A stretch of DNA of 63,483 nucleotides, counting the filler, from Dimargaris cristalligena (lineage: Eukaryota): NCBI GenBank assembly GCA_003614675.1. It is 3 parts of 3 records of this genome, joined end to end, with 100 filler letters (N's around TTAATTAATTAA, not from the genome) between each part and the next. Parts side by side here need not be neighbours in the genome. Positions count along the whole stretch, not along the records: positions 42,394 to 63,483 come from ML002674.1; 2 more parts are not named here. One strand, written 5' to 3'. The notes beneath the pieces are model-generated. The model did not search any database and was not told the DNA's origin. It worked only from the letters and a program-made list of their open reading frames with translations. A program made the translations under genes and the position numbers. This document shows, in pieces, positions 13,002 through 50,660 of this stretch (position 1 is the first letter of the stretch; every line of letters starts with the position of its first letter).

Positions 13002-13829
13002 CTAGAAGAAGTAGATATTTCGAGAGTGCTGCTTTGGCTTGTGCCGAGTACTTTTGGACTCCTTGAAATCGGGGCCGGCCTTATGGAGACAGTATGGCTT
13101 GATGTTTAATTTACACATGGGGCATATCGAGGACTTCTCGGTGAGCCAGTCGTCGATACAATCCAAGTGGAATACATGGAGACACGGCAATTGCCGAATG
13201 ATCTGTCGCGGCTTAATCTCATTCACACAGATGGGACAGTTTTCTTGCGAATCAAAAATACTGAATTCGTCCTCTACCTTGTCCTGCAGCACACTCGGAA
13301 TGACGGACATGATCCTGTCCATCAGTAGACCCATGGTTGATCGCTTGTTCTCCGTCGGAGCCGCGGTGGCGATCTTCGACGATGGTAATGCAGGAGGATG
13401 CCCATCACTTGTAGATGAAGGCCCCGGATTGTCGTTCGCTTTCTCTACTACATCCCTGGGTGCTGAGGAGGAAGTGGAAGTGGAAGAAGAGGAGGACGAG
13501 GAGAAGGGACCCACGGTCGGTCGTTTCAAGGTCGGCAGGGGCTGTTGCTTAGTGTCGATACGGGGGAGGAAGGCCAATAATTCGGGGCTCAGTGGCTTGG
13601 GGCTAACCTTGGGCAGGGCCAGGGTAAGGGACTCGATGCCCCGCCGACGCTTGGCGGCCCATGTGCGTTCGAAGCGCCTCCGTTGGATGGTAAAATAGAC
13701 GCACAGTCCAATTGAAAATATAATCACGAAACCGATGACCCCCCCTGCGATTGCACCGAAAAACACCGCTTTTTGCTCTTGGCTGAGGCCAGAGTTGGGT
13801 TCCGGGCCGGGGTAATTGCCATCGCTCAT
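13002..13829 (-). CDS. Single-pass membrane RING-H2 E3 ubiquitin ligase (ATL/RNF13-like)
   Basis: N-terminal TM helix (AVFFGAIAGGVIGFVIIFSIGLCVYF) followed by basic residues. C-terminal CPIC...LPCLHVFHLDCIDDWL....CPMCK RING-H2. Confidence 0.88.
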   Translation of the reverse strand: MSDGNYPGPEPNSGLSQEQKAVFFGAIAGGVIGFVIIFSIGLCVYFTIQRRRFERTWAAKRRRGIESLTLALPKVSPKPLSPELLAFLPRIDTKQQPLPTLKRPTVGPFSSSSSSSTSTSSSAPRDVVEKANDNPGPSSTSDGHPPALPSSKIATAAPTENKRSTMGLLMDRIMSVIPSVLQDKVEDEFSIFDSQENCPICVNEIKPRQIIRQLPCLHVFHLDCIDDWLTEKSSICPMCKLNIKPYCLHKAGPDFKESKSTRHKPKQHSRNIYFF

Positions 13830-16240
13830 TTTGGGATTAGTGGGCGAAACGAAACTGGCTGGGCTTAATTTAAGATGAATGAAAACCTAATGTATCGATA
13901 TCGATATCTATGCAATAAATTGAATGCGCCTTCTAGACGGCTATACCTTAGATAATAGGACCGCCCGCGGACAATATATAGAAAATGAAGAAATATTCAG
14001 TGGTCGAAAGTACGAGTGGCTGAGGCGAGGAAAAAATTAGAACATCTATTAAATGCGTTTAAATAAAAATAGGTAAAGTCAACCATGTAGAAAGAGAGGA
14101 ACAGTTGACGTATAAGTTGCTTAGCTAGTTGGGGACTTATTGGACATAGGCTTGTTAATATATGAACTCCTATGACGCTAGTCCAATTTTGCAGACGAAC
14201 AAGTCAAGGGTGTTTAGCTTAGAGTATGTTAATTCTTCAATGATATTGGTGTATATCGACCTATCCGGGCTACACATTTTGCCCCCGTATATTTTATTAG
14301 TTAATCTATTTGAGAATACCAATTTTTCGGGGTCGTTTCCTTCAAAGTAGATCGACGACCAAATGCCCGCTCACAGTAAAGGAACTTCGGTCCGATCTGA
14401 CGGTGATGTTGGGGGCTAATCCCGCTAATAACCTAAGCGAGATGTCTATATCTTGAATAGGGCTATATTGTTGAGAAACTAGGCAACGGGAATTAAACCA
14501 CCTGTTTAGCGATGATTTTTTTGGATACACTGAATACCAAAACACCGTGAGACTGTAAGTTTAGCTATAAATTCATATAAATTTGCAAAATGGTATGCAG
14601 GCCGCAGATATTCCGAAGCAAACTGCTAGTAATGCTAGTTCATCCGAACATTTAAGCGGCTTGCCAACGTCTACCACGTCCTATTTCGGCGATTGGCCAA
14701 TTTGGGGCCTTATTTTGCTGATCAAAGAATAATATCAGGTGAATGATAAAAAAAAAATCCGGCCGGTTAATCCTAACCCATAAATTCGGATTATCAGCTT
14801 TCCCTATTAAATTGACAGTCTTGGTTAGATTCATCTTTGCGAACATTAGGTAGCGAATTGCCTCGGGTAGGATTGGCATAGTATGGGGTGAATGAGCGCT
14901 AGGGTAGCATAGAAATAGTATATTATAGACGCAATATGCAACCCCAGTTATCTAGCAACCAAACATATTGGACTTCCAAACTCTCCGCCATTCAATAGAA
15001 ATACTCCGTTGAATATGCCAGAATGGTTACGCATGGTGCCATGGATGCTGTATAATCTATTATACCTTGAACTAATACATTAACAGGGCACCGATATCCC
15101 CCCCCCCTCTGGAAAAGTTGAACTCAATTTGCTTTACTAAGTTTCCCCGAAGAGCTGTTTCCAAGCCCCAATGCACTTTGCTAGTTTGGCATTTGTTTAA
15201 AGGGGCGGTTGGTCTGTGATGGTCTGGCGTAGCAGCTATGCTCATTTCTAATCCAGGCCTCAGAATTAGCTTTCCTCATATCTAGAATTACCGCTATTAA
15301 CACCAACTACATACATTGCAATACCCCCATGTATACCATGGGCAATCCTTATCCAAACGAGCACACGTCACGTGGATCCATGCAAAAATGGGAAGGTTTA
15401 TCAACCAGGAGATGCGGCGAGGTGGTCACAAGTGGCAACAATGCTGGGAAGAAGACACATCTAGGCTCCCACCGGTTTTCCTTCTTCCTGCCCAAACGTG
15501 CCTTCATTACAAAACCGCGCTTATCTCTAACTGCCTCTTGGCGAGCGGGTTAACGCTCAGCTAGAGGCCCTGGTCTCAATCCCTTGGCAGAATCAGAGAC
15601 TGCCCCATTGCCAAGTGTGTGCATTCTTTAGGGTAGATAATTACCAAAGAGGTTTTGATTTATATGCTTGCTACCGCCAGAGACACGGTAAAAAGTAGTT
15701 TCGAACGTAAGGCATATCCGCCCTAACAATTTTTTATATAATGTTCTCAACCCAACATCGCATTGCCGGTTAATTCTAATAAGGATTGAAATACCATTCC
15801 CATGGCAGCTGATGAACTGCCCAGCTACACGAAGGGTAATGGATTCTTTCAGCATTGTGTCCACCAGTGGATATTCTATGTGGAATGACCCATCTGATTA
15901 TAGAAAGTGTTGACCTGTAGGAACCATAGTGGTCTTCGGTTTCCATATTCAAGCATTACTACACAAATATGTACGTTTATGCATGGTATAAATGGCCACA
16001 GCCCTCCACATGCAAGCCATTTTTTGTATGTTAAAAGGGGAATCCCTTGATTTTGTCAGTAATCAAATTGGCAACTACGTGGTCAATAATTGATTACAAG
16101 CCCAGGTCAGGGGCGGGGCGACCTTTGGATAAGCAGCAGTGCCTACCATTGCCCACTGTTGTCCAACCTATCTGGGCGGCCGCTAAATATACCCTGCCTA
16201 TTCGGTGTTAATGATAAGATAGACAATTCATACATATTTT

Positions 16241-20777: not shown

Positions 20778-20921
20778 ATATGGGTGGAATTCAGTGCAGC
20801 TGTATAAGGTTTTGGATGATATGTGTACAGGCAAATATATGAGAGATCCATTATTAACCAGTGGCTTTGGCCTCATCCAACGGATTTATTGTTATACAGC
20901 CAGGTTGAACCTTTCCCATAT
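20778..20921. mobile_element. 144-bp MITE, copy 1
   Basis: ~30-bp imperfect terminal inverted repeats (ATATGGGTGGAATTCA...GCTGTATAA / TTATACAGC...TGAACCTTTCCCATAT), TA flanks, and two homologues of the same length in the window. Confidence 0.8.
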
Positions 20922-21100: not shown

Positions 21101-21200
21101 NNNNNNNNNNNNNNNNNNNNNNNNNNNNNNNNNNNNNNNNNNNNTTAATTAATTAANNNNNNNNNNNNNNNNNNNNNNNNNNNNNNNNNNNNNNNNNNNN
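21101..21200. other. Artificial scaffold spacer (N44-TTAATTAATTAA-N44)
   Basis: Six-frame stop linker embedded in Ns, identical in layout to 42294-42393. Confidence 0.95.
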
Positions 21201-42293: not shown

Positions 42294-42393
42294 NNNNNNN
42301 NNNNNNNNNNNNNNNNNNNNNNNNNNNNNNNNNNNNNTTAATTAATTAANNNNNNNNNNNNNNNNNNNNNNNNNNNNNNNNNNNNNNNNNNNN
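42294..42393. other. Artificial scaffold spacer (N44-TTAATTAATTAA-N44)
   Basis: Same linker as 21101-21200. Confidence 0.95.
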
Positions 42394-44000: not shown

Positions 44001-45234
44001 ACAGAGGTATATCGATAAATCTCGAGTATTTCCAAAGGACGCTGCTTATAAGCGCTGATAGAAAATATGGCGTATAGCTATTGAGCAGGTAGCTTATGAA
44101 GGCAAAAGCTTATTAGATGAAACTCCATCGCTCGCCAAATTTTTGCACCTCACTGGTGATTATAGGGTGGTTGGGAAATTGAAGCCCAAGAGGTATTCGC
44201 TTTAATCAACTTCAAAGGTCGGAGTGTATGGGCTCGTCCCAATTCCCTCGGCTTAATATTATATCACTTCCAAAGCTCAGTTGCCGTCGTCGGCCACAAT
44301 AATATAGTTCGTATCACGGCCTTTTCTTTAGAACCAATCCAATGGTTTGAATCATTGTATTATTTTAACGCTGAAGTGAGTACCGTCCCACCATTGTCAT
44401 CAATGGCCACCGCCTTTCTGCTCCTCGCTTGGGAAATTAAAAAAAACCCTGCCCTTAACCAGGCTGACTTCGTCAACTCCTCGCATATTCCTTCCCACCT
44501 TCAAGTAGAGGGAGGTTACTAATGGGGAAATGTCGATATCCAACCTCTATTACCTTGTCCTACATAGGATGAAAGGGAAATAACCATGGTAGGAAAGGAA
44601 TTGTGCGACTATAGTCCGATAGTCGTCGTTATATTCACAGACGTGAGGAAGAGGTGAAGTCAATGGGAAACACATTGCGTGACACAGATTATGGTGGTCA
44701 AATCAACTGTTAGGGGACTGTGCTCGATGGTGATAGTTGTTTAACGTAATGATGGCCACCTGAACAACCAACCTTGTCTCCTGGGTGAAAATAGGTGCCT
44801 TGCTATGATGCAGCATGACTTTAAATAATAATACAGCAATATAGCTCTAACAGTATTTGCCTTCCTATTTATTTTTTTGAGACTCCCGCCTGGTTTAGCA
44901 CATATTGCACCCCCTGCAACAGTTTATCTTTGTCGGCTCCATTTATAATGCGAAACGCAAAAACACACGAACATATATAAGTGTGCCAGCCAGCTGCCCC
45001 CACAGGACGAACCTCACCCCTCATCGTCCGACTTGGAGCCTGTTGTTTCAAGTTTTCTACTCCTACCTCATTTACCCATATCTCCAGCCAGCCATATCTA
45101 TCTGTAAAGGATAGCCCTATTTCACGAGTCTTACTCTCGACTTTGCCATTGTAAGACATCGTTAATCTACCCATTGATACCCCCCACCCCGACTTCTACA
45201 CGGTTCTTAGCACTACTATCTAGCACCTGCTATA

Positions 45235-46101
45235 ATGGGGTCGTCAATCAAGGATATTCTATTTCTGGCCGTGGTTTGAAGTCTCTTCTCGGCCAGCTTC
45301 GCGACTGAGGACTTACGCTCTGGTGCTCTACGCCCGACTGCCACCCACTACCCGTCTCCCATCGGGGGCAATGCTATCGCCAATGATGTTTCGCAAGGCC
45401 AGTCTAACCACCGAGGGCCGCTGGCCAACTACGCCGGCCACTTCGGATTACCAGCAACTGTAACCAGCTCCGCAACAGCTAGCACTCCCACCCCAAGCTC
45501 AGCCCTGCCGAACAGCTCGTCCCGTAGGCGTATCCCCATTACGAAGGCGGCATCGTCTAGATCCGATCGTAAAGTAGCCAAGATGAACAGGCTAATAGGT
45601 AAACAGGTGTGTCACATTTGCAACCGCCGGCTCTCCGACGACACTGGTGCGGACAATCACTATGCGTTACATGCCGCGGGAGGGGGCGTGTCCTGTGAAA
45701 AATGCGGGGGCCTGTGGGCCAGTCAAGGGTTACTCGATAACCACCAAAAAGTCCCCTGCGACACTACTTGTCCGAGCTGTAAGAGGTATTTTAAAAAAAT
45801 GGACAAACTTTACCGTCACCAGCGCACCGTAGAGGGCTGCCTATTCACGAAGAACTGTACTGAATGCAAGAAGTATTTCACTGATCCCGCCAAATACAAC
45901 AATCACGTAAAAAAAGGCTGTGCCGAAACCCCCGGTTTATGCGGGCATTGTGGAAAAGATTTTAAGTTCGCGGCTGATTTAAAAGTGCATCAACACCCGG
46001 GCAAATATGCCGGAAAATACACCTGTTTTAAATGCCATGATTCATTTGAAAACAACTGCCTGAAATGGATCCATCAGGATCCATGCGATGATTCTGCTTA
46101 A
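45235..46101 (+). CDS. Signal peptide + Ser/Thr-rich linker + six C2H2/C2HC zinc fingers; in-frame TGA at 45277-45279 (open ORF from ATG 45583)
   Basis: ATG 45235 is in frame with 45583: MGSSIKDILFLAVV*SLFSASFA... with no other stop. Six C-x2-C-x12-H units follow. Confidence 0.75.
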
Positions 46102-47717
46102 ACGTCCAGGACCCGGTATGTCTAATCGGGCATCCCGTTTGATTACTATTACACTGTATCCGCAAAACTCGCCTTCTCCAATACAATGTTTTTATGCCAT
46201 ACCTGCTTATATATCAGATTTGGATAATAACCACGTTTCCAATTTGAGTATTCTCAATAATTACATAGACAGCAAATCCGGCCATTATTTTATCAACCAG
46301 TAGGTGAGCCTGTTTTTTTAAAAAAAAATCTTTTGGTTGAAGCACCGGGTATTGGGATATTAACTCAACCATTGCTTGTCCAATGTTAGCTATAATATTC
46401 CAATTAAAATGGCTATCGATTCTGCAAGCACCTCTTTAGTGTGAAACCTACTTTACGGTTAAATAAACCAGACTAGAGCTATTACAATTATCTAGGCCTT
46501 GGTTTGGAAATATACCAGCTATCCTAGTGGTGGCTGACAATGGCCCAAAAATCACCTGCTTTGTATGATGGACTTGAAGCCCTCTCTTCACATCGTATAG
46601 GCCAATTGCCAAATCAGGTCTCGGCAATATTAACCATTTGGGGAAGTATCGCATAAGGCTTTTACAAAATAACAGTTATTTCCGAACATCGACAGAGTAT
46701 TAGGGGTGTAGTGGTGGAATCAACATTCGACATTACTATTCTTGGAAACACGTTTATGCAGCCAGATATTAAATGTCCCGATTTTCGCCAAAAGCTGCTG
46801 TAATGACTTATGGCTTACCCAGAATCCTTATGGATCGAACAGAATGACTTCAAATCATATGCAGTCCATTTTGAGTAGAATAGAGTCAGGGCATTACAAG
46901 CGAAATGTCGGTTAAAAACTAATGAGACCTGACTTAACCAACGGAGTATGCATGGTATAATCGGGCTGAGATGATTAAACAGGTTATTGAATAATACACT
47001 AGCGGTTATTTCTGATATTACCAAAGCAAGAGATTTCAGCGACGTAGTGGGAAATAAGAGATGGTGAAGTCCTTTAGGCCAGGGTTGATACAAAGGGTTT
47101 GGCCATGTACTACAGCAGCCAATAAGTCAAAACCATACCGGCGAGTTTGAGGATATCAGTGATTGGAAGCTATAGCAGGATCCTCCCGGTGGTTGGTATT
47201 TTGACCAATGCCCCCCTCCTTCCCCTCCCAATGGCCAAACGGGTTTCCACTATGCGCTAGTTTTTTGTATGCCAATGATGCCCCGAGCTCTCCTGATATC
47301 CAAGATGCTTACAAGGAAGGGGGGTGAGGGACCAGTGTAACTCATCCCGTTTGCCGTACTTATATTCTAGGCTATGGTCCGCATTAGTTCATCGACCTCA
47401 CACGGTCGGCTCTTCGATGAATCCGGGAAGGAAGCTCATTAAAAGAACAACTACAGATAGTTACTAATACTCCTTGAACCATGCCATCTCTATTTCCTTT
47501 GGTACTTCCGCTCCTTTTTTCAATTAATTTTCGACCTTGACACACGGTCATGTTGATCAGTTAACCACAGCCTACTTCGGTTACCTATCACTCCACACTA
47601 AGACGCTCAACTTTAGAAGAGACGGCCCCCAAGCAAAGAAATGGGGGCGAATCCGATTCGAAATGGTAAGGTCTGATTGAAGCCGAACCCGACATTCGTA
47701 TATATATATATATATAT

Positions 47718-47861
47718 ATAAGGGTGAAGTTCGGCTCGACTGTATAAGGTTTAAACTAGTATGTGTATGGGAAAATCGTCGGGATGATTATTTTCAACTG
47801 GTAGTATTTGCCTCATTAAATGGATTTTTCGTTATACAGCCTTGTTGAACTACTCTCGTAT
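47718..47861. mobile_element. 144-bp MITE, copy 2 (inserted in or next to a (TA)n tract)
   Basis: AGGGTGAAGTTCGG..CTGTATAAGG ... TTATACAGCCTTGTTGAACTACTCTCGTAT. Same length and internal motifs (GCCTCAT..TGGATTTTTC) as the other copies. Confidence 0.75.
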
Positions 47862-48597
47862 GTATATCATTCTTACCGCATGGGTTACACATGAGTGAAG
47901 TGGACATGTCCATGAGAACCTGTCTTCTAACCGCCCTTAAAGGCATGGGCAATGATCGGGTCTATCGGCTGGATACCATCCCATGCCGACTTGGACTGTA
48001 GTTGTCTAACGGGAAGCGTTGCTAGGTGTAGCCTGTACGCCATTCTTATGGAAGGCCAATTGCCCTTTAAAATGGCACTCCATTGACTGTCCTTTTCTTC
48101 ATGACGCCAAGAGAATGGCCCTGCCGGCTTCCGGATATAAAGCGAGTTATGTCTGAGTAAGGGCGGTGCGGTGGGGCTTGTCATTGACCAGCATTTGTCA
48201 TTCGTACGAATGCACAATGTACTACCTGGGCATAATATTTTCCCATACGTTTAGTGGAAGTAGTCTTCACTTTAAAGGTTTATGTCATTTTAATTCTTGG
48301 GGCACGCATTATGCTTTATGAGTTGTAGGTTGGCCTGATTTTCTTTTCTTTAAAAGACCCCCCAATTAGGCTGCCAACGGTATTACTACTGCAACCTAAA
48401 CAACGGGATATCCATTGAAATGGGCAGGGTCTCACGAAGCGATGGCTGAGAGAGGTCAGCTGACGAGAAGGGATATGAGAAGAGGGGAACAACAGCAAGT
48501 CGGGTTATCATGATAACATAATGATCAAAATATGGATCAATAATGGGTGTAGAATAATGAAGCGCAGATGTACAAGTGCCTGATTTGAAGAGGATGG

Positions 48598-48741
48598 ATA
48601 TGGGTGAAATTCAAACCAGCTGTATAAGATTTTACATAATACGTGTATGGGTGAATATATAAGAGAATAGCTTTTAACCAGTCATATTGGCCTCATACAG
48701 TGGATTTTTCATTATACAGCCTGAATGAACTTCTCCCATAT
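48598..48741. mobile_element. 144-bp MITE, copy 3
   Basis: ATATGGGTGAAATTCAAACCAGCTGTATAA ... TTATACAGCCTGAATGAACTTCTCCCATAT terminal inverted repeats. Confidence 0.8.
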
Positions 48742-50408
48742 TCTAATCAACCTCGGTGGTGATAGTTTAATGTAGGAGCGACAAGGAGCCCATCTCCACC
48801 GGCACAGCCTGGTGAAGGTCATTCACTGCAGTGGCCTGAATCGCTATTCTAGGCTGAGAGGGAGGGTGGGCTAGTCGACTCCCGCGACTGGGGCAAAAGT
48901 GGAATTACCCGACTGGGATCTAGGACCCTAGTTTAACCAAACTAAGCGAAAGAAAAAAATACATATAGAAGCCGGTCTATGTACATGTGCTCGCTTCTTT
49001 GTTTTCTGAAATAGTTGATCGAATCCTCCCAACTGGGATACACATGCCATGGTTTGTGCGCTATGGACTCCCAAACTATAACGTGTCTCTGAAACATTGA
49101 TATAGGCCTGTGTGGCCAGGCTAACTACTCTAATACGGAACCAAAGTCCTTGTGGGTAGGTTTCCCAAAGATGTAGCACCAGAAATTACCCCAACCAGAA
49201 AATATCGATGGGGTTTAACATAAGAGGGGGGGGCTACTAATACATTAGAGCACCGTAGTGCGGGGACTAGCCGGGAGGATGAGTATATCAGGGTGTATTG
49301 GGGTAAAACCAGAAAATGACCAGTCGTAGCTTGGAGAGTATTTTTGACGCAGGAACAAAGCCGAAGAACCGACCAAGAGTTAAAGTGATGGTATTTCAAT
49401 GTATCCACGGGTATTCCTCAAGGCTCTAATAGATTCTGGGGGTGCTTTCGGCTCAATGGAGAAAGTGTAGCATAGGAGTCCTTTAAGTATCGACTGGGTT
49501 GGGTAATTGTCCACCATGGCACTAGGTGCTACCACGGGAAAGGCAAACTGATATAAAGTGGCCCAGCTCGGTGGTCAGCGGATACAAAGGCCTAGCCGAA
49601 TTAGTTCAGGTTATTCTGCGCGGCGAGTTGCATTGTGACATTGTCCTACACCTCTTGGCTTTTTAAATGAGGCGTATCGGGAATATCTGATTAAAACCCC
49701 TTTTAACAAGCCACTAGCTAAGCAACTGAATGAGTGATGGGAATATTTGTCAGTATTGTGGCCTATTAACTTTGCTCATAGATGTTACACTAGGCGCCAG
49801 AGAGTCACCAGTTATACATATCTGCATTACGACTATAGGATAAATGGACCGTTGTTAGAGTCTGCTACTCCCACTATTTCCAGCATTTAGCCGCGTACCA
49901 CACTAACAACTCCATCCATAGATCCACATGGTTTTGAAATAAGCAATCTGAAGTTTCGTCGGAATGCTCGCCCCCAAATCCGGATTCCACATCAAGAATA
50001 CTACTTGTAACCTGCGGCACTCTCAATAGTGACCCGAGAATCAAAAAAAGGCGACCATCAGCTGATTACATTGGTATCATCTACGCGAGGGGGAGGGACC
50101 GGCCAATCCAAGGCCCACTCGATCCGTCGCTAATATTCATAGCATAATGAACTGAGCGGACACAGCTTTGTATAGAAACACCAAGTTACAAATGGGCCAC
50201 TAGATTATATAAAGTCTCACGACATTCCCCCTCCAAGATCAGACACCAACAGACAACCGCCGGGCTAATATATATACCTCCTGCTTCGCTTTACGTCCTC
50301 CGCCCTCCCAGTCACCTTTATTGACGTTTACACGCGCCAACCAACTCATCCATCCTCGCTACCAGTCCACCCAATACCATCACCCCTCTTGTACCCTCGC
50401 TCCTAGCC

Positions 50409-50660
50409 ATGCAGCTCCCCAGTTTGTCCTTGGTGGCCGTGACCGCCGCCGCCGCTATTGCCTTCGCCACCGCGGCCGTCCTACCCACTGCTGCCATGGA
50501 TAAGGTCGCCAGCAGTCCACCTGAAAACTTAGCCCATGCCTCCAACGGAGCTCAGGATAACCCTGTGAATCGTGATGATAACGATATACCATATACGTGT
50601 GAATGTGGTTTAAAGTTTTACAATCGTATGCAGTACAATGCCTGTTACCATTCGCACTAG
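50409..50660 (+). CDS. Small secreted protein (83 aa) with a C-terminal C2H2-like zinc finger
   Basis: Strong signal peptide MQLPSLSLVAVTAAAAIAFATA, GC3-rich codons, GCCATG start context, TATA boxes near 50206 and 50269. C-terminus YTCECGLKF.......CYHSH with C-x-C-x12-C-x3-H spacing. Confidence 0.7.
   Translation: MQLPSLSLVAVTAAAAIAFATAAVLPTAAMDKVASSPPENLAHASNGAQDNPVNRDDNDIPYTCECGLKFYNRMQYNACYHSH

Follow-up and report, generated by a model that had tools for sequence, protein, structure and literature searches.

The window, a 63,483 nt stretch of DNA from Dimargaris cristalligena, contains two genes with signal-peptide-like starts and zinc fingers, here termed gene 1 and gene 2. They lie in a gene-poor, MITE-bearing interval, as was stated in a preliminary description of the sequence; the MITE is there in two copies. 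The features of interest are the following.

44974–44980, + strand: TATA-like box, ~260 nt 5′ of gene 1 (from sequence)
45235–46101, + strand: gene 1, 288 codons, subfamily D; signal, S/T/P linker, basic patch and six zinc fingers
45235–45303, + strand: signal-peptide-like segment that opens gene 1 (23 codons), with small residues at −3/−1
45277–45279, + strand: in-frame TGA, codon 15 of gene 1, compared across sequencing runs X1, X2, X4 and X5
45520–45603, + strand: basic patch of gene 1, N-terminal to the fingers (from sequence)
45610–46086, + strand: six beta-beta-alpha zinc fingers; one C2H2, four C2HC and one with three conserved ligands
45737–50569, + strand: block duplicated on contig C1249, 62–86% identity in pieces
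47718–47861, no strand assigned: MITE copy, 144 nt, 73–77% like the second copy
48598–48741, no strand assigned: MITE copy, 144 nt, with 30-nt terminal inverted repeats
50206–50213, + strand: TATA-like box, ~200 nt 5′ of gene 2 (from sequence)
50409–50660, + strand: gene 2, intact 83-aa open reading frame, subfamily E; signal, short linker and one finger
50598–50657, + strand: single finger of gene 2, C-x1-C-x12-C-x3-H

Two zinc finger genes and their surroundings

The frame of gene 1, with its signal-like start, S/T/P linker, basic patch and six fingers, is as first described. The signal is not joined to the fingers in this DNA, as had been claimed, because an overlooked TGA inside the signal separates it from the rest of the frame. 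Runs X1, X2 and X4, which come from one study and possibly from the source of this DNA, carry the TGA; run X5, from a different sample and study, has a different letter at 45277 that produces a sense codon, and shows 5 differences over 3248 nt. The TGA is thus a strain-level nonsense allele: in this isolate gene 1 cannot yield the secreted form, and in another its frame is open. The agreement of three runs rules out a sequencing error, and recoding of the TGA is unnecessary given the sense codon in another sample. An intron that would excise the TGA is also ruled out, the closest GT..AG span found by eye being only 26 nt.

The signal of gene 1 reaches a 9-residue hydropathy of 2.7 by a hydrophobicity heuristic. 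It shares 64% identity with the uninterrupted signal of a paralogue on C379, with pN 0.21 vs pS 0.73, and over 1.26 kb (44222–45475) the identity to that paralogous locus is 67%. The basic patch has a possible role in nuclear localisation or nucleic-acid contact; AlphaFold places a low-confidence helix there (residues 94–105 of P0002).

The six fingers of gene 1 were examined with Pfam and AlphaFold, as had been proposed. Pfam matches to zf-C2H2_4 (E 2.7e-10) and zf-C2H2 (2e-7) are above the curated cut-off, and AlphaFold predicts six beta-beta-alpha fingers at a pLDDT of about 80. Alignment of the array shows 16 Cys/His positions invariant across 10 paralogues. The ‘classical spacing’ assigned to the array applies to finger 1, which is C2H2, and the remaining five fingers depart from it. 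Fingers 2, 3, 4 and 6 read C-x2-C-x12-H-x3/6-C, and finger 5 is without a conserved fourth ligand, for which Cys260 may be a candidate. The pattern C-x2-4-C-x12-H-x3-5-H is therefore found in one of six fingers in gene 1, and not in the lone finger of gene 2. The linkers of the gene 1 array are short, and none is of TGEKP type.

Gene 2 has the intact frame reported for it, with a finger that is not classical and whose match to Pfam zf-C2H2_7 (E 0.023) falls under the cut-off. Its paralogue on C1249 is intact and 55% identical, and has a canonical C2H2 finger (C-x2-C-x12-H-x3-H); pN is below pS in each of three parts of the pair. Gene 2 has no basic patch. Acidic flanks adjoin the lone finger and the net charge is +1; with such a finger the product would more likely bind a protein than DNA.

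The C1249 duplicate carries a broken copy of gene 1 and an intact copy of gene 2, and the MITE at 48598–48741 is missing from the corresponding place. The interval had been termed an accessory island, which finds no support beyond the low gene density and the duplicated block. The MITE is no island marker, as there are about 993 first-look candidates across the genome. For the same reason the MITE was rejected as a vehicle specific to the zinc finger family, as was a contig-end repeat, which is also genome-wide (about 340 first-look candidates).

A family of signal-plus-finger genes

The expansion predicted for these genes is borne out by a census of 324 kb of D. cristalligena DNA. A hydrophobic N-terminus opens 30 of 103 finger-bearing frames (27 firmly), and these 30 further signal-plus-finger ORFs are accompanied by about 30 interrupted copies, i.e. 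about half of the family loci are interrupted. Several subfamilies can be distinguished (A–E are named), and some have Krüppel-type arrays. Most members have two to eight fingers, and one contig-truncated member has nine. TGEKP-type linkers are found in subfamilies A–C, and the Krüppel-type arrays in signal-bearing members have such linkers and six to eight tandem fingers. Every finger of subfamily B follows the C-x2-4-C-x12-H-x3-5-H pattern, and AlphaFold predicts a beta-beta-alpha fold for each finger of subfamily A. Subfamilies A–C have a common helical module after the signal. This module was looked for in gene 1 and gene 2 and was not found; judged on sequence, the two genes are tied to subfamilies A–C by architecture only.

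Of 32 members, 31 have net basic finger regions and 27 have acidic linkers, and only 15 match a simple NLS pattern. His and Cys exchange at ligand positions among paralogues, which fits zinc and not disulfides. The CpG observed/expected ratio is at least 0.60 in all 30 intact members and below 0.5 in 12 of the 30 interrupted copies. Duplication, drift of recognition helices and pseudogenisation account for the gain and loss of members. C14 and C474 were considered as alleles, which was rejected on their unrelated flanks.

The signal calls are based on a hydrophobicity heuristic and on selection, not on a validated signal predictor. The signal is the most constrained part of the proteins, whereas linkers and fingers change rapidly. 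Its dN/dS lies at 0.21–0.37 in five of six groups and is 0 in the other; this range leaves out the C13/C642 pair because C642 is frameshifted near its start. Values are 0.22–0.86 for linkers and 0.34–1.35 for finger bodies, and many approach 1. Positive selection is not evident at base-contact positions (dN/dS 0.45–1.07), where relaxed constraint accounts for the variation equally well. Under simulated random drift of 20–40%, such a signal survives in only 23–5% of trials. All 24 hand-picked ordinary transcription-factor finger ORFs fall under the hydropathy threshold (maximum 1.58), a contrast that is partly circular as signal and control groups were sorted after the score was seen; a Fisher test was discarded as circular. 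The threshold is loose, and 30 of 110 fingerless background ORFs pass it, some of them fragments of broken members. The hydrophobic core of the signal is short, frequently preceded by basic residues and ends in small residues, and no 19-residue membrane segment was found after it. Neither a second membrane segment nor an HDEL/KDEL end was found in the signal-plus-finger members. A purine is at position −3 of the ATG in 26 of 30 signal-plus-finger ORFs, and a TATA-like word lies within 400 nt in 24 of 28 members vs 11 of 24 controls.

The family is easily overlooked. Among 19 signal-bearing ORFs that were looked up, just 2 have an exact public protein, and three public models retain just the fingers or begin downstream of the signal. 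In searches with family members, no hit outside D. cristalligena went further than generic fingers. At E<=1e-5 gene 1 had no homologue among 522 candidates, and the first 232 residues of a protein from subfamily B had none among 1606. A search with alignment A1 (2417 candidates) gave one protein of D. cristalligena and two with generic fingers. Long finger proteins dominated a profile search of 1.84 billion representatives; among the best 150 matches, of which three sequences were read, a single near-full-length stretch was seen only for P0108, a D. cristalligena member of the family. All of these searches are too insensitive to exclude relatives in other Dimargaritales. No relatives of subfamily A were found in metagenomes, nor was a published paper on this zinc finger family found. 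ESM Atlas look-alikes include viral and archaeal finger clusters, with low recognition. A giant-virus capsid gene has been reported in D. cristalligena (PMC13533422); a viral origin of the family is unsupported, no relative having been found in viral contigs.

A possible role in the host mould

D. cristalligena is a haustorial parasite of other fungi (PMC9866270), in agreement with the parasitic or symbiotic lifestyle suggested at the outset. On balance, the genes probably belong to a family that has expanded and whose secreted products act as effectors on host nucleic acids, much like the single-finger MoHTR proteins discussed below. The short signal would route the protein to the secretory pathway and then be cleaved, as its sequence and the selection on it suggest. 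Release at the haustorium and entry into the host hypha would follow, by analogy with lifestyle and the MoHTR precedent. The fingers, with a predicted fold and conserved ligands, would bind zinc and fold as beta-beta-alpha units, and the basic array might then bind host nucleic acid. The target of the two-finger and TGEKP subfamilies would most likely be promoter DNA, and that of the C2HC arrays, gene 1 included, DNA or RNA. The mostly acidic, disordered linker could act on host transcription.

Counted in favour of the effector reading are family size, constraint on the signals, the start context and TATA-like words, the lack of a further membrane segment or HDEL/KDEL end, His/Cys swaps, TGEKP linkers, charge, CpG content, lifestyle and the MoHTR precedent. 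Counted against it are the loose threshold, the post-hoc sorting, the NLS pattern in fewer than half of the members and the lack of clear positive selection. Gene 1 adds its short non-TGEKP linkers, mostly C2HC fingers and low TM-scores, and both genes in the window are without the N-terminal module of subfamilies A–C. In addition, many Cys residues would have to traverse the oxidising ER unbonded.

The fingers of secreted, host-entering proteins might instead bind proteins, e.g. ubiquitin or host regulators, or act as decoys. Gene 2 and the C2HC arrays are the likeliest cases: the acidic-flanked finger of gene 2 is unlike the basic-flanked MoHTR1/2, and subfamily D, besides having no TGEKP linkers, has one additional invariant Cys in finger 6. 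As an explanation it is nevertheless unlikely; against it, subfamilies A and B retain TGEKP-type linkers and Arg-rich recognition helices near those of the parasite's own transcription factors. A little less probable still is that the proteins are retained by the parasite, the hydrophobic start being an ER anchor or cofactor-binding helix and the arrays serving as its own regulators or KRAB-like silencers of repeats. The tandem finger genes of the family evolve by birth and death in a genome rich in repeats, which is the KRAB pattern too; the helical module follows the signal throughout subfamilies A–C, and P0108 is annotated from an internal Met. However, the core is short, with basic residues often before it and small ones at its end, no 19-residue membrane segment follows it, and the same type of start is found in subfamilies with otherwise unrelated N-termini. 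No Pfam match to the KRAB domain was found in P0001 or P0002, nor in the precomputed domains of P0011 (three proteins).

We consider it improbable that the proteins are secreted and stay extracellular, as zinc scavengers or disulfide-bonded interface proteins. Signal peptides do imply transit of the oxidising ER, and the gene 1 array has 17 Cys, but the invariant His, the conserved aromatic and Leu core, the His/Cys exchange and the TGEKP linkers are features of intracellular nucleic-acid binding. Most improbable of all is that the family consists of duplicated DNA in decay that now has no function, with gene 1 and gene 2 as remnants. Many loci are interrupted, gene 1 has a stop in this isolate, many dN/dS values are near 1 and neither gene 1 nor gene 2 has an exact sequence in the protein collection. 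Against this stand the constraint on signals and zinc ligands, and two members that are identical over their full length in a second public assembly. Furthermore, gene 1 is open in X5 and has a CpG observed/expected ratio of 0.94, like intact genes, vs 0.30 and 0.0 in two broken paralogues.

Returning to effectors that act on host nucleic acids, a more far-reaching version has somewhat less than an even chance of being correct. Haustoria would deliver dozens of multi-finger DNA readers to host-mould nuclei and rewire transcription there, the readers being derived from the parasite's own stress factors or of a single-site Krüppel type. The post-signal module of subfamilies A–C may serve in delivery or activation and carry finger arrays that are exchanged for one another. 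If true, a eukaryote would make its own reprogrammable counterpart of TAL effectors, and there would be a first set of candidate nuclear effectors for the parasitism of fungi by fungi. Very little has been described at the molecular level of how biotrophic mycoparasites control living fungal hosts; the genome papers for this lineage deal with proteases, chitinases and NRPS, and their main text does not contain ‘zinc’ or ‘C2H2’. There are about 30 candidates, whose targets could be read by protein-binding microarray, and a protein route into fungal nuclei would serve as a research tool.

Comparison with known systems

TAL effectors of Xanthomonas and Ralstonia consist of tandem 33–35-residue helical repeats with RVDs and are delivered by type III secretion. 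The Dimargaris proteins are like them in the proposed logic only, i.e. a modular DNA reader made by a parasite and active in host nuclei. They differ in fold, repeat type and delivery and share no homology, the product here being a zinc finger array in a fungus. The arrays of PRDM9, CTCF, ZFP568 and Zif268 are alike in their tandem beta-beta-alpha fingers and, for subfamilies A–C, in TGEKP-type linkers; unlike the Dimargaris proteins they have no signal peptide, and the gene 1 array differs in its mostly C2HC fingers and short linkers. Foldseek matches of the gene 1 model to PRDM9, CTCF and ZFP568 have TM-scores of only 0.12–0.21.

Three of the parasite's own transcription factors (C78, C1 and C155) are presumably Crz1-like, from their helix signatures. 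Among own factors the finger pair of subfamily A scores best on these three (62–69 bits) and groups with them with weak support (80/82). This link holds for subfamily A, and not for gene 1 or gene 2. Unlike Crz1-like factors, subfamily A proteins are short and signal-bearing, and their recognition helices vary among paralogues.

PbZFE1 of Plasmodiophora brassicae is, by the title of its report as given in the references of PMC13294368, a secreted transcription-factor-type effector that alters host gene expression; as far as a title allows comparison, it differs in being a protist effector with plant hosts.

The logic proposed for the two genes, put forward as the best candidate for an ‘undescribed system’, has already been described in its closest parallel. 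MoHTR1, MoHTR2 and MoHTR3 of Magnaporthe oryzae are C2H2 effectors that are secreted, pass into the nuclei of the host and bind promoters there (PMC7672089, PMC10189765). In rice, MoHTR1/2 enter the nucleus and their binding sites are defined 8-mers (PMC7672089), and basic residues flank their finger. The MoHTRs have a signal peptide, a disordered middle with basic residues and a C-terminal C2H2 finger, and are likewise lineage-specific proteins of a parasite with a biotrophic interface; secretion in Dimargaris is predicted only. A C2H2-type finger in the mature part is found in gene 1 by Pfam and fold, and in gene 2 as a sub-cut-off match with a canonical paralogue. MoHTR1/2 were modelled on the single-finger GAGA factor, whereas most Dimargaris members are multi-fingered, and about 10 C2H2 candidates were listed for the M. 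oryzae genome, against some 30 intact loci and a similar number of broken ones in Dimargaris. The host of rice blast is a plant and that of Dimargaris a fungus, and Dimargaris belongs to a different phylum from Magnaporthe. The likeness probably reflects convergence, and would mean that secreted finger effectors re-arose in a distant fungal phylum and expanded there to multi-finger arrays.

Two zinc-finger genes and a nonsense allele

Both genes lie wholly on one contig (C467); the N runs at 21101-21200 and 42294-42393 join separate contigs.

45235-46101, +, gene 1 (product P0002): reading frame for a signal-like start followed by an S/T/P-rich linker, a basic patch and six fingers
45277-45279, +, in-frame TGA at codon 15 of the gene 1 reading frame
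50409-50660, +, gene 2: uninterrupted frame of 83 aa

The preliminary description assigned gene 1 a signal, linker, basic patch and six fingers. All these parts are present, but the TGA at codon 15 was overlooked. This TGA occurs in contigs from sequencing runs X1, X2 and X4 (study P1, from which the present DNA may come), with no alternative letter. Run X5 (sample S4, study P2) has five differences over 3248 nt, one of which, at 45277, gives a sense codon. The stop is therefore a genuine allele of the present isolate, and another isolate has gene 1 open. The allele probably arose recently, since gene 1 keeps a CpG observed/expected ratio of 0.94, compared with 0.30 and 0.0 in the broken paralogues on contigs C1249 and C379.

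Pfam places zf-C2H2_4 (E 2.7e-10) and zf-C2H2 (E 2e-7) in gene 1, both above the cut-off, and an AlphaFold model with 10 paralogues aligned has six beta-beta-alpha units (pLDDT about 80), with residues 8-92 disordered. The relative placement of the fingers is undefined in the model (pTM 0.25). Top Foldseek matches are the DNA-bound arrays PRDM9, CTCF and ZFP568 (E about 1e-8, TM-scores 0.12-0.21). The classical spacing claimed for the fingers applies to finger 1, which alone is C2H2, but not to the four C2HC fingers or to finger 5, with three conserved ligands. Finger 6 of subfamily D has an extra invariant cysteine (Cys260 of P0002, 46057-46059), and this residue and finger 5, which lacks a fourth ligand, might form a cross-braced two-zinc unit. 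The target of the array could be DNA, RNA or protein.

Gene 2 had been described as a signal joined to one classically spaced finger. The frame is intact and there is one finger, but its spacing is C-x1-C-x12-C-x3-H and Pfam finds zf-C2H2_7 only, at E 0.023. The paralogue has C-x2-C-x12-H-x3-H at the same place; ligand positions thus swap His and Cys between paralogues, which favours zinc binding over disulfides. Gene 2 is an atypical small family member, and its lone finger, with acidic flanks, is more likely to bind protein.

Family size and the putative signal

The sequence gathered through own-genome searches amounts to 324,208 bases from 90 contigs, roughly 1% of an assembly of 30.65 Mb. 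It contains at least 103 finger-bearing frames, among them at least 30 signal-plus-finger ORFs (first-ATG ORF no shorter than 200 aa, with a 9-residue hydropathy peak of 1.9 or more; the 93-aa gene 2 paralogue was also admitted, and two short off-frame rows that passed the hydropathy rule were left out). The expansion of such proteins that had been predicted is therefore found. Twenty-seven of the 30 are firm, and one, C106:23127, ends after two fingers. The other three (C378:3503, C880:8137 and C883:7701; 560-590 aa) have transcription-factor-like fingers and hydrophobic but less certain starts, and are possible intermediates or chance upstream ATGs; C880 matches the A-C N-terminal profile weakly (E 8e-7, or 0.04 once the signal is left off). 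N-terminal homology adds at least 29 interrupted or start-less loci and one more that a contig end truncates; with the C1249 copy of gene 1 the interrupted total is at least 30, and frame-changed loci may hold introns. All family counts are lower bounds, because one of the own-genome searches scored only 150 of its 270 candidates.

Subfamilies of the signal-plus-finger family
A: two fingers, length 220-290 aa
B: arrays of 6-8 C2H2 fingers joined by TGEKP-type linkers; a contig-truncated member has 9
C: four fingers
D: C2HC arrays, gene 1 included
E: one finger; members are gene 2 and its paralogue

The first 91 columns are common to A and B/C (hhalign probability 99.4, E 7.5e-22), with low-confidence helices predicted; this module was not found in D and E. 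About 50 residues past the signal, A-C members have a predicted helical motif, [IV]xQ[LF]DxxE[LF] (e.g. L070:647-946, L014:1724-2053 and paralogues), which in sequence searches matched finger-family loci only and is a candidate delivery or activation element. Two finger-less ORFs with signal-like starts, possibly secreted, adjoin family members on C106 and C374 (L189:5878 and L035:4544, both minus strand).

The hydropathy rule is weak alone, because 30 of 110 finger-less background ORFs also pass it; 24 hand-picked ordinary transcription-factor finger ORFs score at most 1.58, a contrast with the signal set that is partly circular. Evolution provides stronger evidence, as the putative signal is the most constrained part among paralogues. 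By simple counting, with dS pooled over the gene, dN/dS in the first 22 codons is 0 in one group and 0.37, 0.23, 0.21, 0.27 and 0.37 in the other five, compared with 0.22-0.86 in linkers, 0.34-1.35 in finger bodies and 0.45-1.07 at base-contact positions. For the signal, pN and pS are 0.21 and 0.73 between gene 1 and its C379 paralogue, and 0.18 and 0.31 between gene 2 and that on C1249. Under simulated random drift of 20, 30 and 40%, start, open frame and hydrophobic core survive together in 23, 11 and 5% of trials. A purine is at -3 of the ATG in 26/30, and 24/28 have a TATA-like word no more than 400 nt away (11/24 controls). No signal-bearing ORF has a second membrane segment or an HDEL/KDEL end. 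Effectors usually combine a conserved secretory-type N-terminus with a fast-changing mature part.

Public annotation mostly misses family members. Two of 19 signal-bearing ORFs are exact public proteins, each in a cluster with a 'partial' model of 51 or 55 aa; similarity search found one more at full length (public protein P0011), and one public model begins at residue 19, past the putative signal. The literature on Dimargaris and Dimargaritales zinc fingers, with subscription papers mostly outside its scope, yielded no paper on this family; picture-form supplements or data portals could still list these genes.

Surroundings and turnover

Between QTRT1 and UBA3 there is no ORF >101 aa beyond the two genes, and no further family member was found there, in agreement with a gene-poor interval. 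The interval was also said to be MITE-bearing, and a 144-nt MITE with 30-nt terminal inverted repeats is confirmed by sequence, but the element has about 993 first-look candidates genome-wide, the best 40 of these at 91-100% identity.

47718-47861, MITE copy
48598-48741, MITE copy
20778-20919, MITE copy outside the interval

The block that holds both window genes has a duplicate on C1249, from which the MITE is absent.

Elsewhere, the paralogues C14:6026-7336 and C474:15694-17001 are 91% identical in the linker and 57% in the finger half, with pS of 0.08 and 0.36, respectively, and their flanks are unrelated; such a mosaic could arise by gene conversion or by swapping of finger arrays. A second high-copy repeat (340 candidates) occurs at the ends of many contigs and intrudes into or adjoins four broken family copies: L034:1-150 (C379), L208/L209 (C1426), L218 (C1280) and L171 (C1646). 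One broken family gene is mirrored at both ends of C1426 (140-463 and 4976-5299) with identical scores, either an inverted duplication or an amplification artefact. On C73, a gene for an ordinary transcription factor with four fingers is present as near-identical tandem copies (13582-14655 and 14798-15748), which may be an assembly artefact.

Possible function and known systems

Finger regions are net basic in 31/32 proteins, linkers are acidic in 27/32, and a simple NLS pattern occurs in 15/32. The TGEKP-type linkers suggest that subfamilies A-C bind DNA. The subfamily A finger pair is closest to own-genome factors on C78, C1 and C155 (62-69 bits), with a tree support of only 80/82; the helix signatures of these factors suggest that they are Crz1-like. 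Recognition helices vary widely among paralogues, but base-contact dN/dS of 0.45-1.07 gives no clear sign of positive selection. The family is real and large, and its products are very probably secreted; on a modest balance of the evidence, they probably work as effectors in host cells, with nucleic acids as their targets. As gene 1 carries a nonsense codon here and gene 2 is atypical, intact A, B and D members on other contigs are the best test objects.

Two public proteins that cluster with a family member carry the name Dimargaris cristalligena. Dimargaritales are described as parasites of Mucoromycota and some Ascomycota, via an appressorium and biotrophic haustorium (PMC9866270). In rice blast, MoHTR3 has a signal, an NLS and a finger, with similar candidates in M. 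oryzae only among the fungi its authors compared (PMC10189765); that genome has 20 secreted DNA-binding candidates, half with C2H2, and MoHTR1 and MoHTR2, in which a signal is joined to a C2H2 finger, enter the nuclei of rice cells and bind specific 8-mers (PMC7672089). The effector logic is thus already known, which argues against the undescribed system suggested in the preliminary description. PbZFE1 of Plasmodiophora brassicae is, judging by a paper title, a secreted effector of transcription-factor type that alters host gene expression. The present family resembles the MoHTRs in its presumed working, an analogy that need not imply membership in that group, and differs in its multi-finger arrays, family size and turnover, phylum and fungal host.
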